From assembly GCA_964589835.1 (NCBI GenBank), contig CAZPUU010000002.1, positions 1 through 43,575 on the forward strand: DNA of 43,575 nt, read 5' to 3'. The stretch's first letter is position 1. Each line of letters opens with the position of its first letter. Origin of the DNA: an uncultured Gammaproteobacteria bacterium. Its GTDB lineage: Bacteria > Patescibacteriota > Microgenomatia > Levybacterales > GWA1-39-11. Below are positions 7,189-43,455 of the stretch, piece after piece. The notes under the pieces were generated by a model. It worked only from the letters and a program-made list of their open reading frames with translations, ran no database searches and was not told where the DNA came from. Both the position numbers and the translations under genes were made by a program.

Positions 7189-7333
7189 AAATAATTCTCT
7201 ATCTTAAGTAATGCTCACTCTAGAATGGGATTTTCGGCTTAAATATAGCTTAAATTGACCACGACAATTGCGAACGTAGCAATAATAATACTATTTTTCG
7301 GATGAATTCTTCAAGAAGCAAACAACAAAATTG

Positions 7334-7579
7334 TTATTCTGCCCGTACAATGAACGGAAGAAGCGCGAGCAAACGTGCTCTTTTTACAGCTGTCGTGAGT
7401 TTTCTTTGATGCTTACTGCAAACACCGGTTCTTTGCCTGCTTTGGATTTTTCCTCTTTCAGAAATAAATTTCTTAAGAGTTTCATAATCCAAAAAGTCAG
7501 GATTCTTTTTTTCCTTACAGAAAAAACACTCTTTTGCGACTTCCTGCATTCTTCTCTTTTTTATTATTTTCTTTTTCAT
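7334..7579 (-). CDS. rpsR: 30S ribosomal protein S18
   Basis: 81 aa. [48 protein letters not shown] is a typical S18 core. Sits in the S6-SSB-S18 cluster. Confidence 0.9.
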
Positions 7580-7606
7580 ATTAGCTTTTGTCTTATTACT
7601 TTTATT

Positions 7607-8086
7607 TTAAAAAGGTATGTCGTCCGGATTTACATCCTCAAACTCCGCTTTTTCTTCAACCTTTTCTTTTTTTGCTTTTTTCACAGGTTTTTCTTCCTGA
7701 TCTTCTGAGGCTTCACCGTATGACATGTCTACCTCATGAACAACGCCCTCTTTTCTCGAGTCAAGAATGATCATGTCATCTATGACTATTTCTGTCGTCG
7801 TTTTTGCCGATCCATCCTGCCCTGTCCAACTTCTCGTCGCGAGCCTTCCCTCAACGTAAACCTTTCTTCCTTTTGTTAAGAGCTGTGAACAAAGTTCACC
7901 AAGTTTGTTCCAGGCAACGATTTTGTGATACTCCGCCTCTTCCTTTTTATCCCCATTGTCAGTTGTCCAAGTTCTGTTGGTAGCAAGTCCAAAGGTGCAA
8001 ACCGCAGTTCCCTGAGGAGTATATCTCAACTCCGGATCCCGCGTCAGATTCCCTATCAGTTGTACCCTATTCAAACTTCGTGCCAT
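7607..8086 (-). CDS. ssb: single-stranded DNA-binding protein
   Basis: 159 aa. OB-fold N-terminus (NRVQLIGNLTRDPELRYTPQG), acidic tail ending DDIPF. Confidence 0.93.
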   Translation of the reverse strand: MARSLNRVQLIGNLTRDPELRYTPQGTAVCTFGLATNRTWTTDNGDKKEEAEYHKIVAWNKLGELCSQLLTKGRKVYVEGRLATRSWTGQDGSAKTTTEIVIDDMIILDSRKEGVVHEVDMSYGEASEDQEEKPVKKAKKEKVEEKAEFEDVNPDDIPF

Positions 8087-9803: not shown

Positions 9804-10163
9804 ATGTCTGACAGAAATTCAATTGGTGGAGCTCTTTCCGATCTTGCGAAAGAAACGGTGAAGCAGGTAGTAAGTGCTCCACTTACAATAGCAAAGGGAA
9901 TTCCGGGTCAAGTTGTAAACCGTGACTCTGAGGAAATTGCCGCAAAAAAGAAAGCCGAAAAGGTTGCAACTTTCCACAGAATAAAGGAAATTGAGGCGGA
10001 AATGTCTCAAATCCGAACACAAAATCAACAAAAAGAACAAGCTACTACTCCTTCGTATAAAAAAACCTTGGAGTCGATTGCTTCACGAGGTCACAAAAAA
10101 CTCGACGAAGCCTCACGCCAGGCAATTGGAAAATCCGAACAAGGCCGCAATTTCAAGGGATAA
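9804..10163 (+). CDS. hypothetical protein
   Basis: 119-aa ORF in an otherwise empty intergenic interval. Charged and low-complexity; no motif recognised. Confidence 0.45.
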   Translation: MSDRNSIGGALSDLAKETVKQVVSAPLTIAKGIPGQVVNRDSEEIAAKKKAEKVATFHRIKEIEAEMSQIRTQNQQKEQATTPSYKKTLESIASRGHKKLDEASRQAIGKSEQGRNFKG

Positions 10164-11060: not shown

Positions 11061-12248
11061 ATGAAAATAGAGCCAAGAACTCTCAAAGGCTTTCGTGATT
11101 TTTTACCAAAGGAAGCACGAAAGAGGCAATATGTTATAGAAACCCTGAAAAAGGTATTTGAGTCTTATGGTTTTGAACCACTTGAGACCCCAACTCTTGA
11201 ATACGAAGATATTCTGACCGGAAAATACGGCGAAGAAGGAGACAAACTCATGTACCGCTTTGAGGATAACGGACTACGACGCGTTGCGATGCGCTATGAT
11301 CAAACCGTTCCGCTTGCCCGCGTTGTTGCGCAGTATCAAAATGCACTTCCCTTCCCCTTCAAGAGATATCAAATTCAAAATGTGTGGAGAGCTGACAATA
11401 CGCAAAGAGGACGCTTCCGTGAATTTTTGCAGTGCGACATTGATACGGTCGGAAATGGGCATGTCGGAACCGATGCCGAAATCTTGGCAGTTGTAAATAA
11501 ATCTTTACAAAAACTTGGTTTTACCAATTACAAAATTCTTATTAACGACCGGGCAAACTTTGAGGGAATTGACCAAAAAGCGGTTAGTGTTATAGACAAA
11601 CTTGAGAAAATTTCCGAGGAAGGCGTCATACTAGAGTTAGAGAAAAAAGGATTTGACCCCAATATCCTTGAGCAGATAAAACAAAAAGCACCAACCGAGC
11701 GCCTACAAATTATCCTGAACAATAGCGATGTTACCGGCCCCAACGTAGCATATTCCCCAACACTTGCACGCGGACTCGATTACTACACCGGGCTTATCAT
11801 TGAGGTGGAAATTGAAGGCTTTGACGCAGGATCTGTTGGAGGCGGAGGAAGATATGATGGGCTTATAGGTATGTTTTCCAATCAAGAATACCCTGCGGTT
11901 GGATTTGCCTTCGGATTTGACCGAATTATGGAAGCTATGGAGGAAAAAGGATTATTCCCAACCAATTTAACGACAACGAAAGTTCTGGTTGCCGTTGAGT
12001 TTTCCGAACTCGAGAATACTTCTTACAAAATTAGCGACATGCTTCGCGCGAAAAATATAAACGTAGAGACATATCTCGATAACCAAGCTCAACTTGAAAA
12101 ACAGTTTAAATATGCTGAGAAAAAAGAAATTCCTTATGTTATTGTGCCTATTGATAATCTAACCGTAGAACTCCGTACGAAATCTCTGGCAGGGGAAATC
12201 GTCAAAAAAACTGTTAATATAGAAAGCCTGCCAAATGAGATTATCTAA
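11061..12248 (+). CDS. hisS: histidyl-tRNA synthetase
   Basis: 395 aa. Class II motifs RYDQTVPLAR, FREFLQCDID, GGGGRYDGL and AVGFAFGFDRI. Confidence 0.9.
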   Translation: MKIEPRTLKGFRDFLPKEARKRQYVIETLKKVFESYGFEPLETPTLEYEDILTGKYGEEGDKLMYRFEDNGLRRVAMRYDQTVPLARVVAQYQNALPFPFKRYQIQNVWRADNTQRGRFREFLQCDIDTVGNGHVGTDAEILAVVNKSLQKLGFTNYKILINDRANFEGIDQKAVSVIDKLEKISEEGVILELEKKGFDPNILEQIKQKAPTERLQIILNNSDVTGPNVAYSPTLARGLDYYTGLIIEVEIEGFDAGSVGGGGRYDGLIGMFSNQEYPAVGFAFGFDRIMEAMEEKGLFPTNLTTTKVLVAVEFSELENTSYKISDMLRAKNINVETYLDNQAQLEKQFKYAEKKEIPYVIVPIDNLTVELRTKSLAGEIVKKTVNIESLPNEII

Positions 12249-13143
12249 ACACCAACTCGCCGTACTTGCGCTCATCGTCACCAATCTCATCTGGGGCGCT
12301 GCACCTCCGATTTTCAAGTGGGCGCTTGCCGATATCCATCCGTATACCCTCGCTTTTCTCCGCTTTTTCTTACCCGCTCTTATCATGCTTCCCTTTGTTA
12401 GAAACGATCTTAAAATCAAAAAAAAGGACTGGTTAAAAATGCTTGCTGTAGGATTTTTCGGGGTAACGGTCAACATACTTTTCTTCTTCCAAGGGCTAAT
12501 CATCGCTCCGAGTATAAATGCTGCACTTATCGCAAGTTCTGCTCCGATATTTATCGTACTGTTCTCGCTTTTCTTTTTGCGAGAAAAACCGAAAAGAAAA
12601 GTAGTAACCGGATCGCTTATCGGGCTAGTAGGTGTACTTTTGGTACTAAGTGCCCCTCTAATTCTCAATGGAAAAATTGCCGCACTCGGAAATCTATTTT
12701 ATGTCGTTGCTATGCTTGGTGGAGTTGTTGCTGTGATTCTTGTCAGACAAATTGCAAAAAGAAATTCAGCTCAAAGCATCACATTCTGGTCTTTTCTGAT
12801 CGGAAGCATCGGCTTTGTACCCTTTTTCGTACAGGAAGTGGGTCAATATGGTTTTTTGCCCAATTTGACATCGCACGGATTGATAGGGCTCGTATTCGGC
12901 ATATTTCTATCCTCATTGGCCGCTTACTTCCTGCAAACCTGGGCACTTAAATATCTGGCAGCTGCCGATGTAAGTGTATTTACCTATATTGATCCGGTCG
13001 TGACAATACTCGTCGCAGCGCCTCTTCTTGGGGAATTTCCGGACACTACTTTTGTCATTGGATCTGTTTTGGTAATTTTAGGAATTTTTCTGGCCGAAGG
13101 CAGAGTACACTACCACCCGTTCCATCTCTTTTTGAAGAAGTAA
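12235..13143 (+). CDS. EamA/DMT-family transporter
   Basis: 302 aa, hydrophobic throughout with a two-fold repeated multi-TM layout typical of EamA proteins. Overlaps the hisS end by 14 nt. Confidence 0.8.
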   Translation: MRLSKHQLAVLALIVTNLIWGAAPPIFKWALADIHPYTLAFLRFFLPALIMLPFVRNDLKIKKKDWLKMLAVGFFGVTVNILFFFQGLIIAPSINAALIASSAPIFIVLFSLFFLREKPKRKVVTGSLIGLVGVLLVLSAPLILNGKIAALGNLFYVVAMLGGVVAVILVRQIAKRNSAQSITFWSFLIGSIGFVPFFVQEVGQYGFLPNLTSHGLIGLVFGIFLSSLAAYFLQTWALKYLAAADVSVFTYIDPVVTILVAAPLLGEFPDTTFVIGSVLVILGIFLAEGRVHYHPFHLFLKK

Positions 13144-27643: not shown

Positions 27644-27800
27644 GGAAATAAAAAAATAAAGGGAACTACTCCCTTTTGCACCCGTTAGTATATACTCTCA
27701 TGCCCGTTATTTGCAACAAAGCGCATGTAGCCTCGTACAGTATGGAATAAACAACTTCACAACTTTCTGGAATTATACGAATGCTTAGTCTACAATACTA

Positions 27801-28355
27801 ATGATGAATTTATCCGTCGATTATTACAAGCAAAAAATTATGATCGCCCGCTGCAATAGGCAGGGGGAAATATTGGGTGAGATAGAACGTTGGGAGGCAC
27901 ACGAAAAAGGGATCTTGCACCGGGCATTTACTGTCGCGATCATGTACCGGGGAGACATTGTCTTGCAGCACCGCAAACATCCCGTCTTTGATGGGGTTAT
28001 TGATGTGACCTCATCCTCACATCAAATATACAAAAATGAGGTTCTTCAAGACACAATTGAGGCTACCTATAATTGCCTTGAACGCGAGTGGGGAATTGTT
28101 AAAAAAAATCTTTCAAAACAGCCTGAAGATATGGGGTGGGTATATTACAAGGCCAAAGACAAGTTTAGCAAGTATACCGAGCACGAAATATGCAACGTTG
28201 TTATCTGCGAAGTAAAAGCGCTTCCGTCGCCGAATTTTGAAGTTTCGTATGGGTATTCCGTCGCCTCACCAAAAGAAATCAAAAAGACCTCGTCGCGCCT
28301 TTATCAAAACCTTGCCCCTTGGGTAAAGGCTATGATACGAGAAAAAATGATTTAA
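27801..28355 (+). CDS. second IDI type-1-like Nudix protein (Cys position is Ser)
   Basis: 184 aa. [14 protein letters not shown] (LHxAFS hallmark), [12 protein letters not shown] aligned to [20 protein letters not shown] aligned to ENEVCPVF. Divergent from the mevalonate operon. Confidence 0.6.
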   Translation: [184 protein letters not shown]

Positions 28356-31793: not shown

Positions 31794-31822
31794 TTGATCT
31801 GTCAAATATCCGGGCGTATAAT
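31794..31822 (+). promoter_or_regulatory. sigma70-like promoter of the GC-rich non-coding unit
   Basis: TTGATC (31794-31799), exactly 17-nt spacer, consensus TATAAT (31817-31822). Confidence 0.5.
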
Positions 31823-31828
31823 CTCCGT

Positions 31829-32590
31829 AACTGAAGTCCAAAGCTGCCAGCTTTGGGCGCAGGAGTTCTTTGACTTTATCGCATGTTCCATCCGGAAACC
31901 ACCGGATGTTGCAGTTGAATCCTATCAGCAGGAGGGTACGCGTATGTCGCTCACCGGTCTTTCCGGTAACAAGGGTCCTCCGGGATCCGCATCCTAACCG
32001 CGAAATGCGGTACGCAAAGGCGAAGATCAGATCTTCGCAGAAAGGACCGAAGCGTCGACGGATGGGGCTGACGGCCCCAAAACCGAGAGCTCATCCCCCG
32101 TGGAAAATCTACATGGACTTGCCGTCCGTACCTGCCAGGTACGGCTCTGCCGTCCATTTCTATCGCCAACGGCGAGCAAGTCGCGGGGACTCGACTCCTT
32201 TTGCCCGCTCTGTTGGCGGCAATGTCGATGGATCGGGTGCTTGCACCCGGTTCTCTCCCTGACCGGTGGGGGTTCTCCGGGACCCCCTTCCGGTTTTTCC
32301 AACTGCAAGCCGGGGCAGATTCCCGGCAACATCCTCAATTTTGGAGTATGGGAACATGTCCAAGATACGCTACGTGACGTCGGCCTCCGCCGTCACCTGA
32401 CGTTTCGCCGGGGGTCGCCGCATACCTTAGCGGCACCGCTCCCGGAAGGGAGCAACAAAAAGACACGGGGCAAAAGTCCTGATCCGTCGGTCACCCGAAT
32501 GCGCGGTGATACTCCGGTTCTCGGAACCGGCACCAACGGTGCCACCCCGTCTCGTCCCCGGCCGTCTCCACAAGAGGCGGCCGGGGGTTT
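31829..32590 (+). ncRNA. candidate large structured non-coding RNA of unknown class (about 760 nt)
   Basis: A 959-nt intergenic gap lies between rpsU and the HIT gene. Its core is about 60% GC (38 of 60 nt at 32221-32280) against AT-rich surroundings. It contains only overlapping Arg/Pro/Gly-rich ORFs in several frames on both strands. It holds at least 10 strong hairpins and is bracketed by a consensus promoter and a 13-bp GC hairpin. Confidence 0.45.
32556..32590 (+). terminator. terminator-like hairpin closing the GC-rich unit
   Basis: CCCCGGCCGTCTC-CACAA-GAGGCGGCCGGGG (13 bp including one G-U) followed by GTTTGAT. The U-tract is short. Confidence 0.4.
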
Positions 32591-32652
32591 GATAAATCCC
32601 CAGCAAAAATTACACCGTTATTTCTCTATAAATTGATTTCTACCAAAAGCTT

Positions 32653-34720: not shown

Positions 34721-35821
34721 TTACCTTCCTATTTTAAATTCTACTACGTCTCCGTCGTGCATGATGTAATCGCGTCCTTGAAGTCCTGCCTTTCCTTTTT
34801 CTCGTGCGCCCTTCCAGCCATTGCAGTCAACAAAATCGGAAAAACTCACAACCTCGGCTTTTATAAATTTATCCATAAAATCCGTGTGGATTTCACCGGC
34901 CGCCTCAACAGCGGTTGCACCAATTTTGACTGTCCATGCCCGTACCTCTTTTTCTCCGCAGGTAAGATATGACATGAGCCCCAATTTCTCGTACGCCTTT
35001 TGAATCAGCCTTTCAAGCCCGGATTTTTCAACGCCAAGTTCTTTCAAATACTCCTTTGCATCCTCATCACCTAATGCCGCAAGCTCCGATTCGATTTTTG
35101 CGCTTATCACGACAAAATTTTCCTTTTCCATACCCATAGCCTCCGCGTATTCGGAAATAATTGCGTCGAATTTTTCCTCCTGATAGTCTCCTTCTGTGAC
35201 ATTAAGAACGATAAGCTCGGGTTTTGAAGTCAAAAGCGATAACTGTTTTGACGCTGCCTCTTCCCCTTCGGTAAGCAAAGCGCTTCTTGCGGGAAGCCCT
35301 GTATTCATATGATTTTTGAGTTTTGTAACTGCGGAATTGAGAGTATTGTCGGTCCTTAGAGTTTTATCATTTACTTTCTGTAACGTATCAAGATCTGCAA
35401 GAAGAAGTTCGGTTGTGATTGTCTCGTAATCCTCTTTTATACCAACGCTCCCCTCACGGATCACGTCTTTGTCTTCAAAAGCCCTCACAACGTGCGCGAT
35501 CACTTTTACCTCCCGTATGTGCGAGAGAAATTTGTTGCCAAGACCTTCCCCTTCGTGCGCACCTTTGACTAACCCCGCAATATCAACGAATTCGATCATG
35601 GCTGGCTTGAGAGGCGGAAGCTCCGCCATCCCTTCCTCATTCTTTGTGATTTCGGCAAGTGTAGTGATGCGCTCATCAGGGACAGCAACCACCCCGACAT
35701 TTGGCTCTATGGTTGCAAATGGATAATTTGCAGCCAAAGCCGCCTGCTTTTTGAGCAAAGCATTGAACAATGTAGACTTTCCTACATTCGGCAACCCAAC
35801 AATTCCTACAGACAAATTCAT
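34721..35821 (-). CDS. ychF: ribosome-binding ATPase YchF
   Basis: 366 aa. G1 [18 protein letters not shown]3 DIAGLVKGA, and a C-terminal TGS-like domain ([31 protein letters not shown]). Confidence 0.93.
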
Positions 35822-35868
35822 AGTTTATTTTGAATGCAGTCCTGCGCAACGCCGCAGGATAGATTCAT
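35818..35868 (-). other. 16-codon scar ORF beginning with a truncated ychF start; its stop overlaps the ychF ATG
   Basis: ATGAATCTATCC... encodes [16 protein letters not shown]. Its TGA (35818-35820) overlaps the ychF ATG (35819-35821) as ATGA. On the minus strand, TATAAT lies 7 nt upstream of its ATG. It contains the hairpin CCTGCG-N6-CGCAGG (35841-35858). Confidence 0.4.
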
Positions 35869-35920
35869 GAAGGTAATTATAACAAAACTAATATGATTTT
35901 AGTTCACTAAGCTTGAATCA

Positions 35921-37738
35921 TTATGGGTTTACCACCTCAATCATAAATTTATTTACTTCTTCCGCGGGAGAGAATGCTGGACCATGTAATGAGCACAGCA
36001 ACTCTGCTGTTGGAAGGAGGGGAACTTGACTAACCAGAGAATTGGCCACGTTGCTGCCCATTCTCCTTTTTGTTAAATGTTCGAATGCTTTAACTTTTCC
36101 CAAGTCTTTTGGAAGAAAAACATGTTTTAGCGGCTTGATAAGAACAGGATTATCAAAACCCCCTGAAGTCATTGATATACCAGTTGCATAACTAGGCATA
36201 AATGAAGACATAACTGCCTGAATTTCTGGATAATTAGATTTCAGATACCCAAATGCAAGAGAAAACATGCTACTACTCGTATTACCTGGTGTGCCCGGCC
36301 TACTATAAAGTCGTGTAAGGTCGTAACATTTGCGAGGATCGTATCCATTAAGTATTAATGTGTTTGCCTTATAATCTCTGTCTATTTTCTCAAAAGCAAG
36401 GGCTGAGAATGGAAGCTCTTCTCCTTCGACAAACAAACCAAATGAGATATCAGCCCTTGGGGTATGTATATAGTGTAAGTCGTTATGAATTTGAGCAGCC
36501 AGTGCAGGATCGATTTCCTCAAAACGCAAACCTACACTGTCGCTAACTGACGTAATCCCCTCCTCTTTTACAGCCCTCACGGTACCATTTTTCCTCTGAA
36601 TTACCCAACCCGGTTCAGCAAAAATGCCCCGAGGCGTAAGAATGCTTTCAAGAGGTAGTGGACTTCTCTCCATTCTCTCTTGGATAACTGCAGCCTGTTC
36701 AGAAATTACAAATTCAACAAGGTCATCATTCATGGAATAACTTCTCACAATATCGGGATCAGTTTTTAATATATTGCGCCAATCATGATAATTTCCATTT
36801 GCTTGTAAATATTGCTCCAGTTCCTGACCCGCGTGAAAAAGCGATTTAACAGGAAATGTAGTCAGTCTAAAAAGCACCTGATACTTTAAATCTTGGGGAT
36901 CACATAACATCTCTGTTTTTCCAAGAAAATCACCAGTCTGCCGTGCAACACACTCCCTAATATAAGTCATTAATGGGTCTCTTGGCCAATCTGATAGTTT
37001 AAACTTCGGTTCAAGATTTATTTTTCTATTTTCGATACTCCTTTTTAATGCTTTCTGTTGCTCCAAAATTGCCTCGGTAAATACTATCTCTCTTAACAAA
37101 GCAAACTTTGCACTCGTCCTATTTCCACCTAAGAATACTTTGCTTGCTTTTCTTCTAATGTCAGGCTTTACTTCTGTTTCCTTGTCACATATAACTATTC
37201 CTAAACCGTTTTCGACCAATTGTTCTGGAGCAGACTGGGACACAACAATGCCGACATTTTCTGCCAAATATTTCTTTACAAATCCAAGCACCCTTCCATA
37301 TATTGCCCTATCATTCTTCAATCGAGTTATTTCAGCTACTTCTCCATCAAACTGAGATTTTCCTTTCTCGCTCGTATCTTTATCCTCATCGCTACGAAAG
37401 GCTATCCGAAAACTATCAGGACCTTTCTCAATTTGAATATCATCAAGTATATTCGATACAATCTGTCCTCTTTCTTTTTTATAATTATTTCCTGCACGTA
37501 GTTCTATACCATTCTGAGCCAATTTGTAATTGATAGCACCGAATAACAAATCTAATGAGAGCTCTTTAAAGCCCAAATCTCGGGCACCCTCTAACATTTC
37601 AGGTGTTGCTCCACTTTCCGATTCGCAAGATGTAATACCAATATTCATTCTCTGCTGAAAGCTTCTTTTCATGTAAGGATCAAGCGAAAAGTAGGCAGCA
37701 CCAACTTGACTACTAATTAAAGCTTCTGATGAATTCAT
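35921..37738 (-). CDS. 605-aa protein of unknown function; C-terminal domain resembles Mom/GNAT-like acyltransferase folds
   Basis: Long clean ORF. The C-terminal pattern LHYIHTPRADISFGLF...SALAFEK...DLTRLYS...NTSSSMFS...AVMSSFMPSYATGISMTSGGF recalls GNAT/Mom-like proteins. This is by eye only and low certainty. Confidence 0.6.
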   Translation of the reverse strand: MNSSEALISSQVGAAYFSLDPYMKRSFQQRMNIGITSCESESGATPEMLEGARDLGFKELSLDLLFGAINYKLAQNGIELRAGNNYKKERGQIVSNILDDIQIEKGPDSFRIAFRSDEDKDTSEKGKSQFDGEVAEITRLKNDRAIYGRVLGFVKKYLAENVGIVVSQSAPEQLVENGLGIVICDKETEVKPDIRRKASKVFLGGNRTSAKFALLREIVFTEAILEQQKALKRSIENRKINLEPKFKLSDWPRDPLMTYIRECVARQTGDFLGKTEMLCDPQDLKYQVLFRLTTFPVKSLFHAGQELEQYLQANGNYHDWRNILKTDPDIVRSYSMNDDLVEFVISEQAAVIQERMERSPLPLESILTPRGIFAEPGWVIQRKNGTVRAVKEEGITSVSDSVGLRFEEIDPALAAQIHNDLHYIHTPRADISFGLFVEGEELPFSALAFEKIDRDYKANTLILNGYDPRKCYDLTRLYSRPGTPGNTSSSMFSLAFGYLKSNYPEIQAVMSSFMPSYATGISMTSGGFDNPVLIKPLKHVFLPKDLGKVKAFEHLTKRRMGSNVANSLVSQVPLLPTAELLCSLHGPAFSPAEEVNKFMIEVVNP

Positions 37739-37846
37739 AATATTTGGGTATTATAGGATAGAAATGTTAAGCCGTCAAATGTACCATTATTTGAATTCCT
37801 AACCTATCACATATATAATCAACAGATAATTATCGAATCTCTTCGC

Positions 37847-38410
37847 ATGACTGACATATATTTTGTAACTAGCAATAACTATAAGTTCAGAAAGTTTTCG
37901 GAATCTCTATCGACGACTCAGTTTAATTTTATTCAGCTCAATGAAACAACTCCAGAGATACAGTCTACCAATAATTCAGATGTAGCAGAATTTTCAGCAA
38001 AATGGGCATCTCAAACATTCAATAAACCTGTTATATGTGAAGATGTTGGACTTTACATCGATGCTCTCCATGGATTTCCGGGACCATATTTATCTCATAT
38101 TGAAAAATGGATAGAAACTGATGGCTTTCTTAATCTTATGTCTGGAGTAGGTAACCGAGAAGCACATTGGGAATATTGTGTTGCATTCTGCGTACCAGGG
38201 TCAAAACCAGTTTCATTTAGTACTTTCCCAAGAGGATCTATTGCCTACACTGCCAAAGGAAAAGACGGATGGTATGCCGATAAGATTTTCTTACCTGAGA
38301 ACGAAAAACTAACCATCGCAGAAATGCTTGACCTGAAGATATATAAAAGAAATAAAGATCACTACGAAAAACTTCTGGAATATCTCAAAAAAGAATATCA
38401 ATTTTCATAA
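37847..38410 (+). CDS. Ham1/ITPase-family non-canonical NTP pyrophosphatase-like protein
   Basis: 187 aa. IYFVTSNNYKFRKF, EDVGLYIDALHGFPGPY, EAHWEYCVAF, and a C-terminal KRNKDHYEKL (SHR-like region). Opposite strand to its neighbours. Confidence 0.7.
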   Translation: MTDIYFVTSNNYKFRKFSESLSTTQFNFIQLNETTPEIQSTNNSDVAEFSAKWASQTFNKPVICEDVGLYIDALHGFPGPYLSHIEKWIETDGFLNLMSGVGNREAHWEYCVAFCVPGSKPVSFSTFPRGSIAYTAKGKDGWYADKIFLPENEKLTIAEMLDLKIYKRNKDHYEKLLEYLKKEYQFS

Positions 38411-39034
38411 TAATAAATCGCGGCATTCCTGTACCATTTCACAAGCAATGGAATCAGTAAATGAGGGATCATTTTTCACAATAACCATCCCCGCACCCAA
38501 TCTTGTTGCCATTGCGTATGTTCCCAATCTAGCAATTGTTTGATGTAGATTTATGTCATCCATAAGCTCTATCTCCCTTTTCCTTTTATCCTGATTTTCA
38601 ATTCTCCACTGGCTAATTTGATCCGGATCCGACTCTATAAACAAATACTCGAGTGCCTTTGTACGCAATTCGCTTTGAGGGTTCATAACATATGAACCTC
38701 GTTGCTTGAAAACGACATGAGTCATCTGAAGACTGGGTTGAAGACTTATAAGTCTATCAAGCGTTCGCTGAATATATGCATCTAGGTCGTCAAGCTGCAT
38801 ATCTTTTAACGCGTCTTGTGTAATGAAATCTGCATCAGCAAGTGATTGGCGGATGCTTGCAAGTAACTCAGATCCAAAATTGAAAATTGCTATTTTGCCA
38901 CCTAGTAATTCGGGTTCGAGCTCGCTTGCCTTTTTAACTAGATAGTCCTTTCCCGCACCTGATATTCCCGTAACGGTAATAATCCTATTTTTATCAGAAG
39001 CATTTTCGACTGGTCGTATCCGCTCAATTTGCAT
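38405..39034 (-). CDS. P-loop nucleotide kinase resembling archaeal-type adenylate kinase (AdkA family)
   Basis: 209 aa. Walker A TVTGISGAGKDY. Collinear by eye with archaeal AdkA (MTHVVF at the DTH position, INLHQ at the IEQHQ position, GAGMVIVKND at the GATVKIVQN position). Confidence 0.55.
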   Translation of the reverse strand: MQIERIRPVENASDKNRIITVTGISGAGKDYLVKKASELEPELLGGKIAIFNFGSELLASIRQSLADADFITQDALKDMQLDDLDAYIQRTLDRLISLQPSLQMTHVVFKQRGSYVMNPQSELRTKALEYLFIESDPDQISQWRIENQDKRKREIELMDDINLHQTIARLGTYAMATRLGAGMVIVKNDPSFTDSIACEMVQECRDLLL

Positions 39035-39040
39035 ATTTTC

Positions 39041-40048
39041 CTAAGTGAGTGGTACTTCTGATTTTGGTAGACTTAATAACTCCTGAGTATATCTTTTTCC
39101 CAACTCTTCTGTCCAAATATCCCTCATTGCTTGCTGATTGTCCATCAACTGAATGTGATACTCTTTTTCCCTTTGTACGGTCTGAGGAAAATCAATTACC
39201 TTCGAGGGAAATACCCGAAGAAGCATATTTGGATGGACCTCCTCTTGAATTTTATCCATCAGAGAGGGAATCGCTTCTCTAGCTTCCGCGACCGATTCTC
39301 CAAGCAAGGTAATATAAGTATAGGTATCTATACCTGCTTCCACCAACCTTCGCAATGCTTCTATTTGCAGATCGAAATATTCCTGTGCTGCACCCGTATT
39401 TCTTGAAAAAGACTGAGGGCTTATTCCCTTTATGCATGTGGCTCGGGCATAATTGGGGTATTTCGCAAATCGATCGAGTTGCTCAGGGGTTAACTTCTCA
39501 AAGAGAAAGAGCGAACTTAGATTATCATCCTGCCATAAAAAATGAGTCTTATCCATGCCTCTTTTTTCAAGTTCATCCATCATCCAAAGCGTCCATTCTG
39601 GCACAAGATCAGGTTGACCACCCGTTAGGTAAAATGTAGGAGCTTGGACCTCTTCTTGTTCATATAAATCTATTAAATCACTTGGAGACTTAAAATCACC
39701 CCGTGAAGAGTCAGCCTTTAAATATCTAAAGTCGACAAAACAATACCAACATCTAAAATTACAGGCTCCAACTCTGAATATTTGCGTAAGTGATGCATCC
39801 TCTTCCGATATTCCTAGCTTTGCAGGAACTAATTCCGGAAGTATATCAATATCTGGCCAGTCAGGTCTTTGCGTAACGGCCCGCCTCACTATTCCGAATC
39901 CGTCACAGTTAATGTATGCATGAGTACTATCAACCAGCTCTTCTTGCGGAATTTTTGATATGAAAATTTCTCTTGATTCAGGACGAATTATCCTTTCCCG
40001 AAAAGACTCTCCGAGTGCCACCGAATCAAAACCACCCTCCTTTCGCAT
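39041..40048 (-). CDS. radical SAM enzyme
   Basis: 335 aa. Canonical CxxxCxxC cluster motif GACNFRCWYCF and a GGE-like LTGGQPDL. An N-terminal extension of about 90 aa precedes the cluster motif. Confidence 0.8.
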   Translation of the reverse strand: MRKEGGFDSVALGESFRERIIRPESREIFISKIPQEELVDSTHAYINCDGFGIVRRAVTQRPDWPDIDILPELVPAKLGISEEDASLTQIFRVGACNFRCWYCFVDFRYLKADSSRGDFKSPSDLIDLYEQEEVQAPTFYLTGGQPDLVPEWTLWMMDELEKRGMDKTHFLWQDDNLSSLFLFEKLTPEQLDRFAKYPNYARATCIKGISPQSFSRNTGAAQEYFDLQIEALRRLVEAGIDTYTYITLLGESVAEAREAIPSLMDKIQEEVHPNMLLRVFPSKVIDFPQTVQREKEYHIQLMDNQQAMRDIWTEELGKRYTQELLSLPKSEVPLT

Positions 40049-40089
40049 AACTATATGATACCATCACGTGTCAAGAACAAATATCGTAT

Positions 40090-40182
40090 CTAAGCCAAAG
40101 CCGCCTGCTTTTTGAGTAAAGCATTGAACAATGTAGACTTTCCTACATTTGGCAACCCAACAATTCCTACTGATAGATTCAT
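40090..40182 (-). pseudogene. ychF: displaced 5' fragment of ychF (first 30 codons, then a stop)
   Basis: 40093-40182 matches 35732-35821 with 5 mismatches in 90 nt, all synonymous. It encodes [30 protein letters not shown] and is followed immediately by TAG. Similarity ends abruptly at codon 30. Confidence 0.85.
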
Positions 40183-41373
40183 ATTTCAACTAATCCTTTC
40201 ATAATAATTATATTAGTCATTTCTCTTAAGACGCAACGTAGTAGCATGTAGTTTTTTGATAAAATCGTCAAATATCGCCAGGGTTCCTACAACAAATTTC
40301 TTATTAGAAAATATTGGATCTTCGGATGGCACTTCGTCTTGATTCAACATGCCAGAAAGAGGTGAAACATGAATAATTTTATGTCTAAAATTGAATACTT
40401 TTTTAATTTTACTAACATCTTTAGAAGCGATATTCAATTCATCGAAATCTATATCATATGTAATTTTAAATACTTTTTTGCATAATGCATAATCTTGAAA
40501 ATTAATTAAGCCTTTCCCCTTCTTACCGTTTACGAGATATTCTATCAATACTAAATTGTCTTTAACAACCGCTGCTTTTATAGCCTCCTGCTTTTTAAGA
40601 GAGAATAACTTAGCTACTAATTCTTCAAGCTCTGGCTTGATACCTTCTTGCTCCAATTCCCTAAATCTTGCCTTCGAATATGTTTCAAACCCTGTTATTA
40701 AAATCGATAATGCTTGGTTAGCTACGATAGACTCAAAAATATATCCTTCGATAGAAGTTCCATTTATAAGTTTCTCGACTGAGAATATCGAATTTTTCCA
40801 ATTATCTAATGCTGAGGGTTTAAGAGTTTGCTTACCATTTTCGTAAACGCTTAATGCCATAACTTCAACGCCCTCATCCCCTACTTGAACAACTTTTCCA
40901 TCCTCGCCTATTTGAAATTTTTTTTGAGAAATTTCACCTTCACTTGTTACCAACTTTCCTCCTTCAACATCTTTTGGTCCAATACTTAATCGTGTCTCAT
41001 TCGGAGACCACACAAAATAAAAGAAAACTTTTTTACTTGGAATGACTGCATTTAGATCAATCGTTGCCACTCTAGTTCCGGTTCCTGGTGAAGAGTGATA
41101 AAATTTTGCTTCAAAATTATCGGTTCTTTCAAGAAGAAAATAATGTTTACCCGATATAATTTCAAAAATCTTATCCCCAGGGATATCTCGATTAAATAGT
41201 TCGTCATTGTCAAACGTAAACGTAAATGCTGCAGCACCCTCTTGCCGTTTAAGAGCATCACGAATTTGTTCTATTATTTCTGATGATAAATTTTTCATAT
41301 ACGTTTTTCTTCTTTAGGTTAGGCAATATAAAACGAGAACAAAATTCTAAAATTGAGTTAACAACCTGACTTT
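40183..41373 (-). mobile_element. inserted cassette 2 in the ychF 5' region (single gene)
   Basis: Bounded by the 30-codon ychF fragment (40093-40182) and a third ychF start copy (41374-41391). Confidence 0.45.
40213..41298 (-). CDS. 361-aa hypothetical protein with C-terminal R-x4-H (HEPN-like) motif
   Basis: Clean ORF. VFNFRHKIIHVSP lies near the C-terminus within a helical region. The N-terminal half is beta-rich and unassigned. Confidence 0.55.
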   Translation of the reverse strand: MKNLSSEIIEQIRDALKRQEGAAAFTFTFDNDELFNRDIPGDKIFEIISGKHYFLLERTDNFEAKFYHSSPGTGTRVATIDLNAVIPSKKVFFYFVWSPNETRLSIGPKDVEGGKLVTSEGEISQKKFQIGEDGKVVQVGDEGVEVMALSVYENGKQTLKPSALDNWKNSIFSVEKLINGTSIEGYIFESIVANQALSILITGFETYSKARFRELEQEGIKPELEELVAKLFSLKKQEAIKAAVVKDNLVLIEYLVNGKKGKGLINFQDYALCKKVFKITYDIDFDELNIASKDVSKIKKVFNFRHKIIHVSPLSGMLNQDEVPSEDPIFSNKKFVVGTLAIFDDFIKKLHATTLRLKRND

Positions 41374-41391
41374 CCCGACAGACAGATTCAT
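41347..41391 (-). other. third remnant of the ychF start with a native-like upstream sequence
   Basis: ATGAATCTGTCTGTCGGG (MNLSVG) matches the ychF start at 15 of 18 nt, then diverges to a stop after 14 codons. The 15 nt upstream (GATATACTTACCCTC) match the 15 nt upstream of the 35868 copy (GTTATAATTACCTTC) at 12 of 15. Confidence 0.5.
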
Positions 41392-41425
41392 GAGGGTAAG
41401 TATATCACGCTGGGATATAGCCCGG

Positions 41426-42571
41426 TTACCTGCCGGGGAAGGTGTTTTTGGGGACTGCGACTCTGAGTCCGTTGCCCAGGTCAAATTCTTGATCCCCATT
41501 TTCTTCCTCAAGCTGGAGGATGGCAAGTATTGAGGGGACATAAGTGTCAGAGTAATCACTTAACTTTGAAATTACTTTTCTTTTTACCTGCTCATTACTA
41601 ACGAGTTTGTAAAAATCTAATTTGTCTCGAGCCATGAGTTTTTTGGCTTTATCCACATCAATATTGCCTTCGTAAAACCCAATATCTTCACCGTATTTAT
41701 CCTGAAAATAAACAGACAATGCCTCATTCACATTTCCTATTCCTGCATGATAAGACCAGATGGTGAGTCCTATGTCACCTCCAAGCATAGCTTGGTGGTC
41801 GCGTAAATAGCGGCCTGCCGCATCGATGCTTAAAACCGGATCACCACGGTGATCGTATCCCTTTTCCTTGTCAATGAGTCCGTATTGCTCTCCCGTATCC
41901 ACCATGAACTGTGCTACTCCACGCGCACCGGACATTTTGTTGGTCACATCTTCACCACCCCCATTTTCAATTGCAATAATTCCATAAAGCATTGCTTCTG
42001 AGATGCCATACGCGTGCGCTGTTTGTTGAATTATTTCTTTATACTGCTGAGGAATTTGCCTATGCTGTTTTTCATAACCGGGCTTGTCTTCCAGTCTTGC
42101 CTTGAACATATCGACCCAGGCGTTAGCTTCCTGTTGTTGTTGAGGAGTCAGGTCATGAAAAACAGTTTCAGAAAGTGATGTGCCGCCATGCACATTTTCT
42201 TGAGCTTTCACAACGGCTACATTTTTGGATTCATGTGTTTCGGCTGTATGTGGCTGAACGGCCGATTCTACACCCGTTGCATTTACATCTTGTTGTTCGA
42301 ACCCACTTGCGTGGGCTCCATCACCGTCAATCTCGTCAACGACCGCTGCCCCTCCGCCAAGCGTTGCTCCCAATACCGCAATTGCCGCCGCTTTACTTCT
42401 CCAAGAACTCCCCTTATTTGAATCAACAGTATTCGACCTGCGTGACTCAACGGAAGAGGCATTTTTCCTGCGGACAATCCCATCAGGACTGACAACAGGC
42501 TGACCGATATTTCCTGCATTTTTCCGGCGGATTATTTGCCCCTGAGGTTGCTGCTCTGCTGAAGGATCCAT
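41426..42571 (-). CDS. lytic transglycosylase (SLT-domain) protein
   Basis: 381 aa. TM segment AAIAVLGATLGGGAAVV. SLT catalytic context GIIAIENGGG...SGARGVAQFM. Confidence 0.75.
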   Translation of the reverse strand: MDPSAEQQPQGQIIRRKNAGNIGQPVVSPDGIVRRKNASSVESRRSNTVDSNKGSSWRSKAAAIAVLGATLGGGAAVVDEIDGDGAHASGFEQQDVNATGVESAVQPHTAETHESKNVAVVKAQENVHGGTSLSETVFHDLTPQQQQEANAWVDMFKARLEDKPGYEKQHRQIPQQYKEIIQQTAHAYGISEAMLYGIIAIENGGGEDVTNKMSGARGVAQFMVDTGEQYGLIDKEKGYDHRGDPVLSIDAAGRYLRDHQAMLGGDIGLTIWSYHAGIGNVNEALSVYFQDKYGEDIGFYEGNIDVDKAKKLMARDKLDFYKLVSNEQVKRKVISKLSDYSDTYVPSILAILQLEEENGDQEFDLGNGLRVAVPKNTFPGR

Positions 42572-42678
42572 TACAATTCAGTATAACAATATTTGAAAAG
42601 GCCGTAAAATAGGCTCACGGATATACTCCCAAGGCAAGACACTTGACAAGTACCAAAAAGCGGGTTCATACTCAATAT

Positions 42679-43455
42679 ATGGCTAGAAGAAGACTTGCAA
42701 AACACTTGAAAAACTCGACTACCCATCTATATATCCTCTTCGGATTGACAACATTTTTCTTCGGGATAATTGCGGCGTTCATGATCTCAAATGTTTTCGC
42801 ACAAAATGCCGACACCAACCAGATCTACTCATGTGTCAATAACACAAACGGCAATATGAGAATGGTAACGTCATTAGACACTTGCAAGAACGGTGAAAAA
42901 TCGGTCAAGTGGTCTATCCAAGGACCTCCGGGACCGGCGGGTCCTGCAGGCGACACGGGAGGACTCAATCAATATTTTGGACTGCCGTTTTTCTGCGCGA
43001 CCTGTAATTTTGTCAGTATTGCAGATAGATTTGTAGACAAAGATTTTTCTTATGCACAAATTGTCAAAAGTGAATTCAGCGGCTCAGACATCCACGGAGT
43101 AATTTTTAAAGGCGCGTATCTTAATGGAAATACTTTTAACAATACAAATATGACCAACTCCGACCTGAGCAGTATGAAGGAATTGCCGGGCTGGGGAAAT
43201 TCCCGCAGAAATACATTTTGGAATTCAAATCTTACGAATTCTAATTTTTCAAACAGCATAGTCCAGGAATTTGAATTTACGAATGCCAATCTTATGAATG
43301 CCAATTTTTCAAATGCTCTTATAAAGGGATCCAAATTCACCGGTGCGACAAATTTGTCTACGGCAAATTTTAGCGGTGCGACTTGGGAAAATTCCACATG
43401 TCCTGACGGCACAAATTCCAATAACAACGGGAGTACCTGCCAAGGACATTTTTAA
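42679..43455 (+). CDS. membrane-anchored pentapeptide-repeat protein
   Basis: The ATG at 42679 (MARRRLAKH...) is followed by a TM helix, a short collagen-like GPPGPAGPAGDTGG, and C-terminal pentapeptide repeats (NLTNSNFSNSIVQEFEFTNANLMNANFSNALIKGSKFTGA). Confidence 0.75.
   Translation: MARRRLAKHLKNSTTHLYILFGLTTFFFGIIAAFMISNVFAQNADTNQIYSCVNNTNGNMRMVTSLDTCKNGEKSVKWSIQGPPGPAGPAGDTGGLNQYFGLPFFCATCNFVSIADRFVDKDFSYAQIVKSEFSGSDIHGVIFKGAYLNGNTFNNTNMTNSDLSSMKELPGWGNSRRNTFWNSNLTNSNFSNSIVQEFEFTNANLMNANFSNALIKGSKFTGATNLSTANFSGATWENSTCPDGTNSNNNGSTCQGHF

Follow-up and report, generated by a model that had tools for sequence, protein, structure and literature searches.

The 5' end of ychF as a probable recurrent insertion hotspot in Levybacteria, with two successive insertions recorded in one genome

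Introduction

Tandem arrays of SXT-type elements are known, and SXT is said, after Hochhut and Waldor in 1999, to supply a new promoter and 5' coding sequence, with its target gene staying functional. SXT has its own integrase and inserts at the 5' end of the target gene, as described in PMC2791158. The locus described below lies in a 43.6-kb window (the whole stretch of DNA that was analysed) from the chromosome of an uncultured bacterium of the Levybacteria (CPR) and resembles SXT in prfC in that the 5' coding end of a conserved gene of the translation-factor GTPase family receives the insertion. However, SXT has a tyrosine recombinase of its own, which defines its family, together with Xis, conjugation genes and fixed short attP/attB sites, whereas the window has no recombinase, its two blocks of 1.2 kb (block B) and 4.3 kb (block A) contain nothing but cargo and the breakpoints are not fixed. 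CIMEs and tandem accretion at the att sites of ICEs are also known, e.g. with ICESt1/ICESt3 at fda of Streptococcus thermophilus. They too are integrase-less, att-flanked cargo stacked at one target gene with att-like repeats left between, but their att sites are recognisably those of a cognate ICE, itself known, which moves them in trans, and they mostly occupy the 3' end of a gene. The window yielded neither a cognate element nor a common att core nor a recombinase.

The defence hotspots of E. coli and Pseudomonas are flanked by core genes and hold variable cargo without mobility genes. As at the present locus, their position adjoining a conserved gene is fixed, an integrase is often lacking and the cargo is lineage-specific, including HEPN-type and nucleotide-modifying candidates; exchange there is however thought to be a double crossover in both conserved flanks, without gene-start duplications, whereas in the window the insertions interrupt the start of the coding region and conservation is limited to one flank. 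Integron cassette arrays likewise stack promoter-less cargo downstream of a resident promoter, and block B is integron-like in being headed by a captured ychF promoter, but the window lacks intI and attI, its cassettes do not end in imperfect palindromes of the attC type, and its "array" is bounded by copies of the host gene start.

Incoming linear DNA has been documented to integrate by homology-facilitated illegitimate recombination (HFIR) or by ligation and a subsequent single crossover; as would apply here, HFIR combines one homologous anchor with one non-homologous end in a RecA-dependent manner, with event-specific junctions and no dedicated recombinase, and single crossover duplicates the anchor (PMC3240628). 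Both are known as infrequent events, from laboratory work with competent bacteria and with E. coli, whereas the window would represent a recurrent natural route to one gene start, with a replacement promoter. At the dnaN-ychF site of pneumococcus a satellite prophage has been described (PMC6375853; attB listed in PMC8637289). There too a mobile element lies directly upstream of ychF, the promoter is rearranged and ychF expression is changed (PMC6375853), but this prophage, from another phylum, encodes an integrase, is flanked by 14-bp repeats and occupies an intergenic site, and the coding sequence is not duplicated.

Results

The ychF start is present four times on the minus strand of the window, and all four copies were re-located at the positions that an earlier note on this DNA had given (Table 1). 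Read along that strand, the order is the SLT gene, the native ychF promoter with 18 nt of ychF, the HEPN-family gene, an SD with 90 nt of ychF and a TAG, a four-gene nucleotide-modification module, a second promoter with 12 nt of ychF in a structured 47-nt leader and, at the end, intact ychF. The segments 40093-40186 and 35732-35825 match at 94% over 94 nt and are the sole repeat in the whole window (BLAST E ≤ 1e-3). Alignment bears out the 30-codon copy of the earlier note (40093-40182, five synonymous mismatches in 90 nt, then TAG): 85 of the 90 coding positions are identical, TAG follows the left copy directly and the differences, at ychF nt 7, 9, 12, 33 and 66, are synonymous in 5/5 cases (P = 0.0008 under random placement). 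The two short copies of 12 and 18 nt have a common promoter-like context, since the pattern TATAMTTACCYTCATGAATCTRTC is found exactly twice (35858-35881 and 41381-41404; expected 0.00 from 100 shuffles), and the identity of 12 in 15 nt claimed upstream of them, with a -10 box 7 nt before the ATG, was recovered as well. In the 18-nt copy a weak resemblance to ychF reaches about nt 30 (22/30), the similarity past nt 18 being not significant (p = 0.08-0.15), and this displaced start now opens a 14-codon ORF (MNLSVGKVRLLTQF, then a stop; 41391-41347).

Table 1. Features of the ychF locus, listed in the direction of the minus strand
Feature	Position	Strand	Evidence or remark
SLT-domain lytic transglycosylase gene	41426-42571	-	Pfam PF01464, E = 4e-16
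P1, native ychF promoter: extended -10 (TG-A-TATACT), 7 nt, ATG; leaderless type	41392-41407	-	probable function
Displaced native ychF start, 18 nt (MNLSVG)	41374-41391	-	
Block B leader	41299-41373	-	homologous to leader of a different cargo gene in L091
Block B cargo: 361-aa protein, C-terminal HEPN (RiboL-PSP type) domain	40213-41298	-	family-level evidence
Block B right end: SD-like ATGAAAGGA..AGTT..AA. directly before ychF ATG	40183-40212	-	
Displaced ychF 5' fragment, 30 codons + TAG; left direct repeat of block A	40090-40182	-	85/90 identical to 35732-35821
Block A promoter-like TTGACA..TATAGT region + radical SAM gene (335 aa, CX3CX2C)	39041-40089	-	PF04055, E = 7e-12
Block A P-loop nucleotide kinase, 209 aa	38405-39034	-	NF003122 adenylate kinase, E = 9e-15, below cut-off; AAA_17
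Block A Ham1/RdgB non-canonical NTP pyrophosphatase, 187 aa	37847-38410	+	PF01725, E = 9e-26
Block A 605-aa protein: N-terminal CMP-kinase-like fold, C-terminal phage Mu Mom-like GNAT fold	35921-37738	-	
P2, second ychF-type promoter: TG-T-TATAAT, 7 nt, ATG	35869-35884	-	probable function
12-nt ychF-start copy + 35 nt = structured 47-nt leader	35822-35868	-	RNA fold; homology to L017
Intact ychF	34721-35821	-	TIGR00092 YchF, 389.7 bits, cut-off 279
Right direct repeat of block A = first 90 nt of intact ychF	35732-35821	-	alignment
ychF nt 70-101, 32 nt without variation at any codon position across five lineages	35721-35752	-	

Some 19 separate samples (JGI, ENA, Logan) yielded contigs that are collinear at ≥ 99.6% identity. 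The left 90-nt copy is crossed by L003, L004 and L096 and the right one by L001, L002, L004 and L113-L115, and the single contig L004 runs from SLT to ychF. Many short-read contigs (L005, L093, L095, L098) stop within the 90-nt repeat, as is expected at repeats and as an assembly chimera of strain variants would also produce, but given that both copies and both unique exits are crossed by contigs of different samples and assemblers, the probability of such a chimera is negligible. As far as assemblies can show, misassembly is excluded, and the arrangement is identical, with no polymorphism, in the ~ 19 assemblies of this species.

The SLT gene is the conserved upstream flank in this lineage, with orthologues upstream of ychF in L091, L009 and L103. 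The architecture of P1 is found directly before intact ychF in L105, L106, L011, L009, L103 and L108, and P1 is orthologous to the L091 copy. The block B leader aligns with that of L091 with a score of 36 compared to 11.9 ± 3.6 for shuffled sequences, of which 0/2000 reach 36. Relatives of the block B cargo form 346 clusters, and two residues of its Rx4H motif, R305 and H310, do not vary; PF18735 is matched by 10 of 40 family members (best E = 7e-8), and the window's own 361-aa protein has no Pfam or PADLOC match. The SD at the right end of this block is kept in L091, and in L112 ATGAAAGGA is followed by a different 8-nt spacer.

In block A, the radical SAM protein matches viperin models weakly and in its N-terminal part only (PADLOC pVip 4e-6; NCBIfam 22.6 bits for a cut-off of 180), and its promoter region is also kept in L116. 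The 605-aa protein matches PF25680 Mom at 29 bits (cut-off 27.1), and its AlphaFold model (pLDDT 90) retrieves Mom (8bv8, E = 1e-6) and CMP kinases (E = 4e-5) in Foldseek; in some relatives the Ham1/RdgB protein is fused to the Mom-like one. Both blocks are compositionally foreign, with a GC content of 31-36% and 35-41% compared to 44-47% in the flanks. The claim that neither block holds an integrase, transposase or relaxase was confirmed by Pfam search, which also found none in the rest of the 43.6-kb window. This absence covers 43.6 kb of the genome, and a recombinase could act in trans.

The junction of block A, between nt 90 and 91 of ychF, falls within the 32-nt invariant stretch, while the second longest invariant run is 9 nt and 17% of third positions are invariant overall in the five lineages. 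A join in the middle of this ultra-conserved stretch would be a coincidence under HFIR and would equally suit a site-specific attB. Upstream of intact ychF, the 47-nt leader RNA folds at -17 kcal/mol (z = -4.25) and encodes a 16-codon uORF whose TGA overlaps the ychF ATG (ATGA), a layout also present in L017 and L010. The interior of this leader is homologous to the native ychF leader of L017 (score 8 compared to -7.5 ± 3.3; 0/5000 shuffles). Hence the 12-nt copy, which had been taken for a displaced fragment in its own right, generated in this genome, belongs with the next 35 nt to an L017-type leader/uORF, and both were most likely brought in by block A, as its right end. P2 presumably now drives intact ychF.

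Among relatives, an empty site occurs in at least six Levybacteria lineages (L105, L106, L011, L009, L103, L108/L111): the ATG of intact ychF is preceded, at 6-8 nt, by an extended -10 (TGnTATAAT), and fragments are absent. The closest relative, L091 (YchF 91% identical), carries alternative cargo at the same scar: SLT is followed by the promoter with 15 nt of ychF, a homologous leader of ~ 70 nt, an unrelated 305-aa protein with a HEPN motif, the conserved SD and intact ychF. P1, fragment, leader and SD are in common with the window and block A is absent; since the block B scar is common to both, it must be old. In L116, another species, ychF likewise holds the four-gene module, but broken at nt 63 rather than nt 90: a 63-nt displaced fragment follows a promoter of native type, and the restoring promoter is a different one. 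The two L116 copies are 86% identical over 63 nt (longest identical stretch 17 nt), their mismatches extend to the very edge of the repeat, and 9/9 differences are synonymous (P < 1e-5). The sequence common to both versions of block A consists of the four genes and the radical SAM promoter, and the junctions share nothing. In a third species (L117/L118) the module is found between tRNA genes, with tRNA-fragment repeats; given its presence both there and at ychF, the module moves between hotspots. Across events the breakpoints fall at 12, 15-18, 63 and 90 nt of ychF, and nearly every lineage has different genes upstream of ychF. A donor genome with module, P2, leader and ychF in a row and without the left fragment was not found among the relatives.

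Discussion

Given that the relatives do not all carry the identical arrangement, but include empty sites, other cargo and an independent insertion, comparison of their sequences supports the 5' end of ychF as a real and recurrent insertion hotspot in Levybacteria. The same relatives support the serial insertion proposed in the earlier note, with a restored ychF N-terminus and displaced 5' fragments. Its "attachment site" finds no support in the site-specific sense, as the breakpoints vary and no sequence is common to the two pairs of block-A junctions. Furthermore, the exclusively synonymous differences in the window and in L116 show that displaced and restoring copies diverged inside functional ychF genes of different lineages, and thus that the new 5' end came in with the insert.

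Two successive insertions in this genome are well supported. The ancestor would have carried SLT, then a leaderless-type ychF promoter (TGnTATAAT, 6-8 nt, ATG), then ychF. In a first event, before the split from L091, a HEPN-gene cassette with its own SD and ychF start would have entered after about nt 15-18, stranding upstream the native promoter and start, which would now head the HEPN cassette. A second event, in this lineage only, would have inserted the 4.3-kb block at nt 90 of the restored ychF, with a radical-SAM / kinase / Ham1 / CMP-kinase-Mom-like module as cargo and, at its right end, a full foreign ychF 5' region made of P2, the L017-type leader/uORF and the first 66 nt of ychF or more. 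The earlier 30-codon start would have been pushed leftward, ending in TAG, and the working ychF would be a donor/recipient hybrid expressed from P2.

The lack of polymorphism among the ~ 19 assemblies and the age of the block B scar would also agree with an old, fixed local rearrangement without any mobility, made of in-situ duplications of the ychF start and ordinary gene gain. This is very improbable and largely refuted by the comparative data, that is the empty sites, the alternative cargo and the independent insertion of the same module; moreover, a dead fragment decaying in situ would not be left with synonymous differences alone, the GC of the blocks is foreign and the P2 leader matches the native leader of another lineage (L017). 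Decayed or cargo-only integrative elements (CIME- or IME-like), moved by a site-specific recombinase encoded elsewhere, are a possible if rather doubtful source of the blocks; their attB would lie in the ychF start and/or nt 70-101, and their attP would carry a gene-restoring mimic of the ychF 5' end, like SXT in prfC. Indeed, each block is flanked by direct repeats, the target gene is made whole again under a new promoter, the stacking resembles tandem accretion and several old scars cluster in nt 5-18. A junction in the 32-nt invariant stretch is typical of the target choice of integrases, the tRNA-fragment repeats around the L117 module are typical of their att sites, and integrase-mediated insertion adjoining ychF is known in pneumococcus (PMC6375853). 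However, there is no recombinase in the blocks or the window, the two related block-A insertions break at 63 and 90 without common arm sequences, the L116 repeats have no identical segment > 17 nt and are mismatched up to their edge, and IMG/VR viral contigs gave neither a ychF mimic nor a cargo relative.

Because the window has no integrase and the breakpoints vary, RecA-type integration through one-sided homology anchored in ychF is favoured over site-specific recombination. Homology would exist on one side only, inside ychF, as the genes upstream of it vary from lineage to lineage. The molecule that came in, itself hypothetical, would be either a linear fragment, integrated by homologous recombination in ychF and an illegitimate join at the other end (HFIR), or a self-ligated circle carrying a ychF 5' piece, integrated by a single crossover. 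By both routes host RecA-type functions would suffice, the gene start would be duplicated, the breakpoints would vary per event and ychF would stay intact, as selection would demand, the direct repeats then permitting clean loss by recombination; natural competence of the organism is an assumption of the model. To the whole explanation, a recurrent landing site with two insertions by recombinase-free, one-sided homology, we give about an even chance.

For a circle entering by single crossover, the 63 nt at 86% identity of L116 or the 18 nt of block B would be very short for RecA. The clustering of old scars in the first 18 nt of ychF could reflect a defined crossover core, and not decay.

Organisation of the ychF locus

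The best relatives of the window YchF and SLT (lytic transglycosylase) are found in Levybacteria MAGs, and the window, 43.6 kb of chromosome from an uncultured CPR bacterium (Levybacteria/Levyibacteriota), is filled with housekeeping genes (DnaB, CysRS, SSB, HisRS, a release factor, ProRS, the mevalonate pathway, dnaX, ybeY and ychF). The four ychF start copies and the gene order described in the earlier note were found again in the window sequence. Between SLT and ychF lie block B, headed by the ychF-type promoter P1, and block A, which ends in a second promoter of this type (P2) and its leader. In what follows, nt numbers are positions within ychF, and handles such as L091 denote contigs or loci of relatives or of other assemblies of the same species.

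Features of the ychF locus, listed from SLT towards intact ychF
Feature	Position	Strand
SLT	42571-41426	minus
P1, extended -10 box TG-A-TATACT, 7 nt, then ATG	41407-41392	minus
ychF start copy, 18 nt	41391-41374	minus
Block B leader, 75 nt	between 18-nt copy and 361-aa gene	minus
361-aa gene (block B)	41298-40213	minus
SD-like ATGAAAGGA stretch	between 361-aa gene and 90-nt ychF copy	minus
90 nt of ychF, then TAG	40182-40090	minus
Left block A junction, displaced 90-nt copy into block A: ...GGCT / TAGATACG		
Block A genes: radical SAM, P-loop kinase, Ham1 (opposite strand), 605-aa Mom-like	40048-35921	
P2, TG-T-TATAAT, 7 nt, then ATG	35884-35869	minus
12-nt ychF start copy + 35 nt	35868-35822	minus
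Intact ychF	35821-34721	minus
Boundary at nt 90 of ychF, sequence expected if block A is lost: ...GGCT / GCAAATTATCC		

Block A is flanked by 90-nt direct repeats derived from the target and block B by 18-nt copies, weakly recognisable to about nt 30. The long repeat (94 nt, 94% identity) is the sole one in the whole window at E ≤ 1e-3. A 24-nt promoter-plus-start pattern common to both short copies occurs exactly twice (0 expected), and a 17-nt degenerate ychF-start pattern matched the three longer copies (0 expected) and one more place, the start of an ORF at 27801. The GC content of the blocks is 31-41% compared to 44-47% in the flanks. We considered whether the 18-nt scar of the window and the 15-nt scar of its relative L091 are degraded 90-nt copies and rejected this, the extension not being significant (p = 0.08-0.15 in the window, 0.74 in L091). 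A generic scan for sigma-70 promoters and terminators (25 against 17.7 ± 4.1 in shuffles, thus not above) does not list P1 and P2, which have no recognisable -35 box, and no Rfam family matched in the window at gathering score.

An assembly chimera, named in the earlier note as a possible source of the repeats, is ruled out at the level of assemblies by contigs that cross both repeats in different samples. Indeed, in about 19 public samples from three assembly sources, contigs are collinear with the window at an identity of at least 99.6%, each repeat copy is crossed into unique sequence on both sides by several contigs, and a single contig (L004) spans from upstream of SLT to ychF. The identity of the two copies over nt 34-65 explains why many short-read contigs end inside the repeat; no variant without block A was observed among same-species contigs, those ending inside the repeat being uninformative. 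In L095, a contig of the same species (SRR11567540, 8655-9739), the gene call splits the 361-aa HEPN-family gene into two ORFs (129 and 215 aa), with one gap relative to the window; either a frameshift in this allele or a fault of the assembly may underlie this.

Empty sites and alternative cargo in relatives

In L105, L106, L011, L009, L103 and L108/L111 (YchF 61-86% identical), ychF is intact, an extended -10 box of the TGnTATAAT type is found 6-8 nt before the ATG and no start fragments are present at ychF. This state is best read as the ancestral empty site that the earlier note had proposed to look for in related genomes. No SD is present before ychF in L105, L106, L011, L009, L103 and L108 (position 9976-10000 or equivalent), and since this, together with the short spacing between box and ATG, implies leaderless-type mRNAs, we infer that the ychF transcript is leaderless or nearly so. 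In L106 (9930-10000) a tandem duplication of about 37 nt of the ychF promoter region is observed.

L091 (GCA_030645455.1), with YchF and SLT 91% and 69% identical to those of the window, displays the order SLT, GATATAAT-TACCCTC-ATGAATCTATCTGTT (promoter and 15 nt of ychF), leader, 305-aa gene, SD-like stretch and intact ychF, without block A. Its leader is homologous to that of block B (score 36 against 11.9 ± 3.6, 0/2000 shuffles), and the SD-like ATGAAAGGA..AGTT..AA. before ychF is the same in L091 and the window. Given that scar, leader and SD are common to both, the insertion of block B appears to be older than the split of the two lineages, its cargo having since been exchanged, or having diverged past recognition, between conserved ends. 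A comparison of the two cargos (361 and 305 aa) showed the Rx4H motif alone in common (BLASTP E = 0.13). L091 thus holds other cargo at a common scar, a case that the earlier note had proposed to look for in relatives.

L116, a contig of a third species (YchF 83% identical over 132 residues), has the four-gene module of block A inserted in ychF with its order kept (rSAM 90%, kinase 75%, Ham1 76% and Mom-like 68% identical). On its left side a native-type promoter (TAAAAT, 7 nt, ATG, as in L103) is followed by 63 nt of ychF, a palindrome and the module, and on its right side come a different promoter (TGGTAGAAT, 7 nt, ATG) and intact ychF. Apart from the four genes and the rSAM promoter, the window and L116 have unrelated junctions. 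L117/L118 carry the module elsewhere (rSAM 77%, kinase 51%, Ham1 66%, Mom-like 54% identical), flanked by tRNA-Cys, with two 29-nt tRNA-fragment repeats behind it, and by tRNA-Ile. In L117 (ERZ27293407 contig; 7180-7700 and 12187-12260) a 5' tRNA-like half, a free tRNA 3' end and the two 29-nt repeats are seen upstream of the module, and by its sequence this tRNA site looks like the scars of integrase-type insertions; a nucleotide-metabolism cluster (dCTP deaminase, dNK, dUTPase, ThyA, DHFR) follows the module there.

The genes downstream of ychF are syntenic and its immediate upstream neighbours differ in almost every lineage examined: HEPN-361 and the module in the window, a 305-aa protein with the HEPN motif in L091, a 363-aa protein in L009, a glyoxalase-like and a 209-aa protein in L103, an Imm5-like and a DUF4185 protein directly against ychF in L108 and L112 respectively, and other genes in L105 and L106. 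Different cargo and empty sites are therefore found at one position in related genomes, as in a variable hotspot, and the relatives bear out the reading in the earlier note that incoming blocks restore the ychF start and displace older ones. Given the positions of the Imm5-like and DUF4185 genes in L108 and L112, reshuffling between lineages seems to extend over the entire region upstream of ychF. Upstream of SLT, in the window (42643-43455, plus strand) and past its end (L003, 2618-3037), a pentapeptide-repeat protein, an Imm5-like protein, a DUF4185 protein and a 433-aa protein are encoded.

A metagenome scan with the SLT alignment returned two loci, of which L090 is unrelated and L089 has SLT and no ychF within its 2.7 kb. 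The best match of a GTDB scan with YchF was 70% identical and no duplicated ychF N-terminus was found at the protein level among 80 GTDB loci, hence the phenomenon is not general outside close Levybacteria.

Origin of the restoring copies

The 90-nt copies of the window differ at nt 7, 9, 12, 33 and 66. The 63-nt copies of L116, in which identical stretches do not exceed 17 nt, differ at nine sites, each of them a third codon position. Taken together, 14 of 14 differences are synonymous (random placement, P = 0.0008 and < 1e-5). This indicates that the copies diverged as working ychF starts in different lineages and were later joined; decay of a dead fragment in place would not spare the protein and is rejected as the source of the differences. 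From this pattern the restoring copies appear to be foreign. Since both 90-nt copies are about equally near L091 (84 and 85 of 90 identical), the repeat itself does not discriminate and the native copy was assigned by its flanks: the left copy appears native in the window, where the SD upstream of it is orthologous to that of L091, and in L116, where a native-type promoter precedes it.

The 47-nt leader behind P2 (12 nt and 35 nt) folds stably (-17 kcal/mol, z = -4.25) and contains a 16-codon ORF with a TGA stop that overlaps the ATG of ychF. Between its 35-nt interior and the 32-nt interior of L017's native ychF leader there is significant similarity (score 8 against -7.5 ± 3.3, 0/5000 shuffles), and the ychF of L017 has the same promoter, MNLS start and ATGA overlap as the P2 region. 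Given this similarity, P2 and its leader are read as a genuine ychF 5' region of another lineage type, the simplest account being that block A brought it in as its right end. The 12-nt copy is part of the L017-type leader and not the footprint of a third insertion at this place, but a far older insertion may have left it as a stabilised scar. An analogous 14-codon uORF ending in an ATGA overlap is found in L010 (9945-10000), and in L112 (4600-4652) the promoter is followed by a 17-nt leader, ATGAAAGGATGTCGAGT, before the ATG, which starts with ATGAAAGGA as at the right end of block B. Together, the comparisons give good support to a history in which block B would have been inserted first and block A second, each with its own ychF start and with displacement of the older starts.

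Cargo of the two blocks

The block B protein is a member of a family that is widespread and uncharacterised (346 clusters at 50% identity) and in which the Arg and His of the Rx4H motif are invariant. A quarter of the members scanned match Pfam HEPN_RiboL-PSP, and we take the block B protein for a probable HEPN RNase of the conflict-system type. AlphaFold without alignment gave an unusable model of the 361-aa protein (pLDDT 36.6), and PDB sequence searches with three cargo proteins and the HEPN-family profile returned no matches.

In block A, the radical SAM protein shows weak, partial resemblance to viperins and QueE. PADLOC gave weak N-terminal pVip matches for it (4e-6) and nothing for the remaining block proteins, and its assignment as a prokaryotic viperin was rejected, given 22.6 bits for NF038283 against a cut-off of 180 and a match restricted to residues 94-166. 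The block also encodes an adenylate-kinase-like P-loop kinase and a Ham1 NTP pyrophosphatase, and the model of the 605-aa protein (pLDDT 90) shows a CMP-kinase-like fold at the N-terminus and a phage Mu Mom/GNAT fold at the C-terminus, the Mom-like protein being fused to Ham1 in some relatives. Block A thus appears to be a conserved nucleotide- or nucleic-acid-modifying module, for which an antiviral role is plausible; it falls in no PADLOC system in the PADLOC scan. Searches of IMG/VR viral contigs gave no relative of the Mom-like, rSAM or HEPN cargo. The conserved 18-nt ychF motif had five matches there, all by chance and in unrelated genes, and the G1-region pattern had none, hence no phage-borne ychF mimic is seen in IMG/VR.

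Mode of insertion

Profile scans agree with the earlier note that the blocks contain no integrase, transposase or relaxase: no recombinase or DDE transposase was found in the five block proteins (Pfam, NCBIfam, PHROGs, PADLOC), and no integrase, transposase or relaxase family matched among the other window genes. For this reason we lean towards a recombinase-free route, to which we give a chance just short of even. Integration would proceed through one-sided homology, in ychF itself, either with homologous recombination at one terminus and an illegitimate join at the other or by a single crossover of a self-ligated fragment. Homology-facilitated illegitimate recombination (HFIR) and ligated single crossover are documented for incoming linear DNA (PMC3240628), and homology on one side with event-specific non-homologous junctions is what is found here. 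Furthermore, the ychF side alone is conserved between lineages, the breakpoints vary by event (12, 15-18, 63 and 90 nt), the two related block A insertions have no common arm sequences and the L116 repeats are too diverged to hold a long identical stretch, all of which favour this route. The main rival, a site-specific recombinase acting in trans on CIME-like blocks (integrase-less cargo elements), seems to us rather unlikely. It can draw on a resemblance to SXT in prfC (PMC2791158), on the clustering of the old scars within the first 18 nt and on the block A junction, between nt 90 and 91, in the middle of a 32-nt invariant stretch (nt 70-101), but the two independent events have no common crossover position (nt 90 in the window, nt 63 in L116) and their junction sequences are unrelated. 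The remaining explanations together make up the remainder of the probability.

The stretch nt 70-101 (AAAAAGCAGGCGGCTTTGGCTGCAAATTATCC; window 35721-35752, minus strand) is invariant in five lineages, including all synonymous sites, compared to an overall ychF DNA identity of 74-83% among them, 17% invariant third-codon positions elsewhere and a second-longest invariant run in ychF of 9 nt. Its folding shows no unusual stability (z = -0.95). It would serve equally well as the sole segment long enough for RecA between diverged lineages, and candidate reasons for its invariance are a role as recombination anchor or as attB, or some other function at the nucleotide level. A further reading, which we consider improbable, is that the Levybacteria ychF start is a dedicated landing pad, composed of the leaderless promoter, the first codons and nt 70-101, for a previously undescribed kind of gene-targeting cassette. 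Small cargo-only modules would then carry a functional mimic of the ychF promoter and 5' end and would spread between CPR lineages by host recombination alone or by an unrecognised trans-acting enzyme, and the first ~100 nt of the host ychF would be overwritten, and so homogenised, during this spread.

Relation to known systems

CIME accretion, in which integrase-less blocks are stacked at one att site, and variable hotspots flanked by core genes are known, and SXT reportedly inserts within the 5' end of prfC, which is restored by an element-borne promoter and start. The present locus differs from an integron in that no intI is found by profile scan, no inverted repeat is present at the cassette ends and the sole strong hairpin lies in the P2 leader. 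Target-derived direct repeats are present as in ICEs, IMEs, prophages and satellites, but a self-encoded recombinase is absent. In pneumococcus, ychF-adjacent integration is intergenic and integrase-mediated (PMC6375853). We regard as new the combination of cargo-only cassettes inside the ychF coding start, variable breakpoints and no recombinase, the leaderless-type promoter captured by the first cassette, and the occurrence in CPR bacteria, supported by a series of relatives among which a second, independent hit is found.

The locus provides a dated series from empty site to one and then two cassettes, together with the independent hit in another species, and indicates that foreign genes can stack inside the start of a conserved housekeeping gene, kept alive by the imported promoter and 5' end. 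To our knowledge, almost nothing has been reported on how CPR/Patescibacteria, with their tiny genomes, acquire accessory or candidate defence genes, and we know of few integrative elements, att sites or hotspots described for them. If the recombinase-free route is true, gene flow between diverged lineages could use conserved gene starts as universal homology anchors; should a trans-acting recombinase turn up, the locus would define its attB. It also draws attention to a conserved four-gene nucleotide-modification module (radical SAM, kinase, Ham1 and CMP-kinase-Mom fusion) and to the leaderless-type ychF promoter architecture in the phylum of the Levybacteria.

Other observations in the window

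A fifth ychF-like start (TACAAT, 7 nt, ATGAATTTATCCGTCGA; MNLSVD...) is found at 27788-27820 on the plus strand, at the start of a 184-aa ORF (27801-28355), where the 17-nt ychF-start pattern is matched with one mismatch (0.00 expected in shuffles). The gene has the layout of Levybacteria ychF (-10, 7 nt, ATG), and its orthologues in L091, L105, L009 and L103 keep the promoter and differ in their starts (MSIQNS..., MSS..., MKHS...). This start could be a small ychF conversion patch or a convergence of leaderless starts.

Between the HIT gene and rpsU, about 800 nt (31800-32600) have a GC content of 49-67% compared to ~42% for the genome. Public annotations of the same contig (L001) leave this interval without a gene call, and no Rfam match was obtained even at E ≤ 1. 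The left part alone aligns to L091 (71%), and a gap of similar size is seen at this position in L091, L103 and L105.
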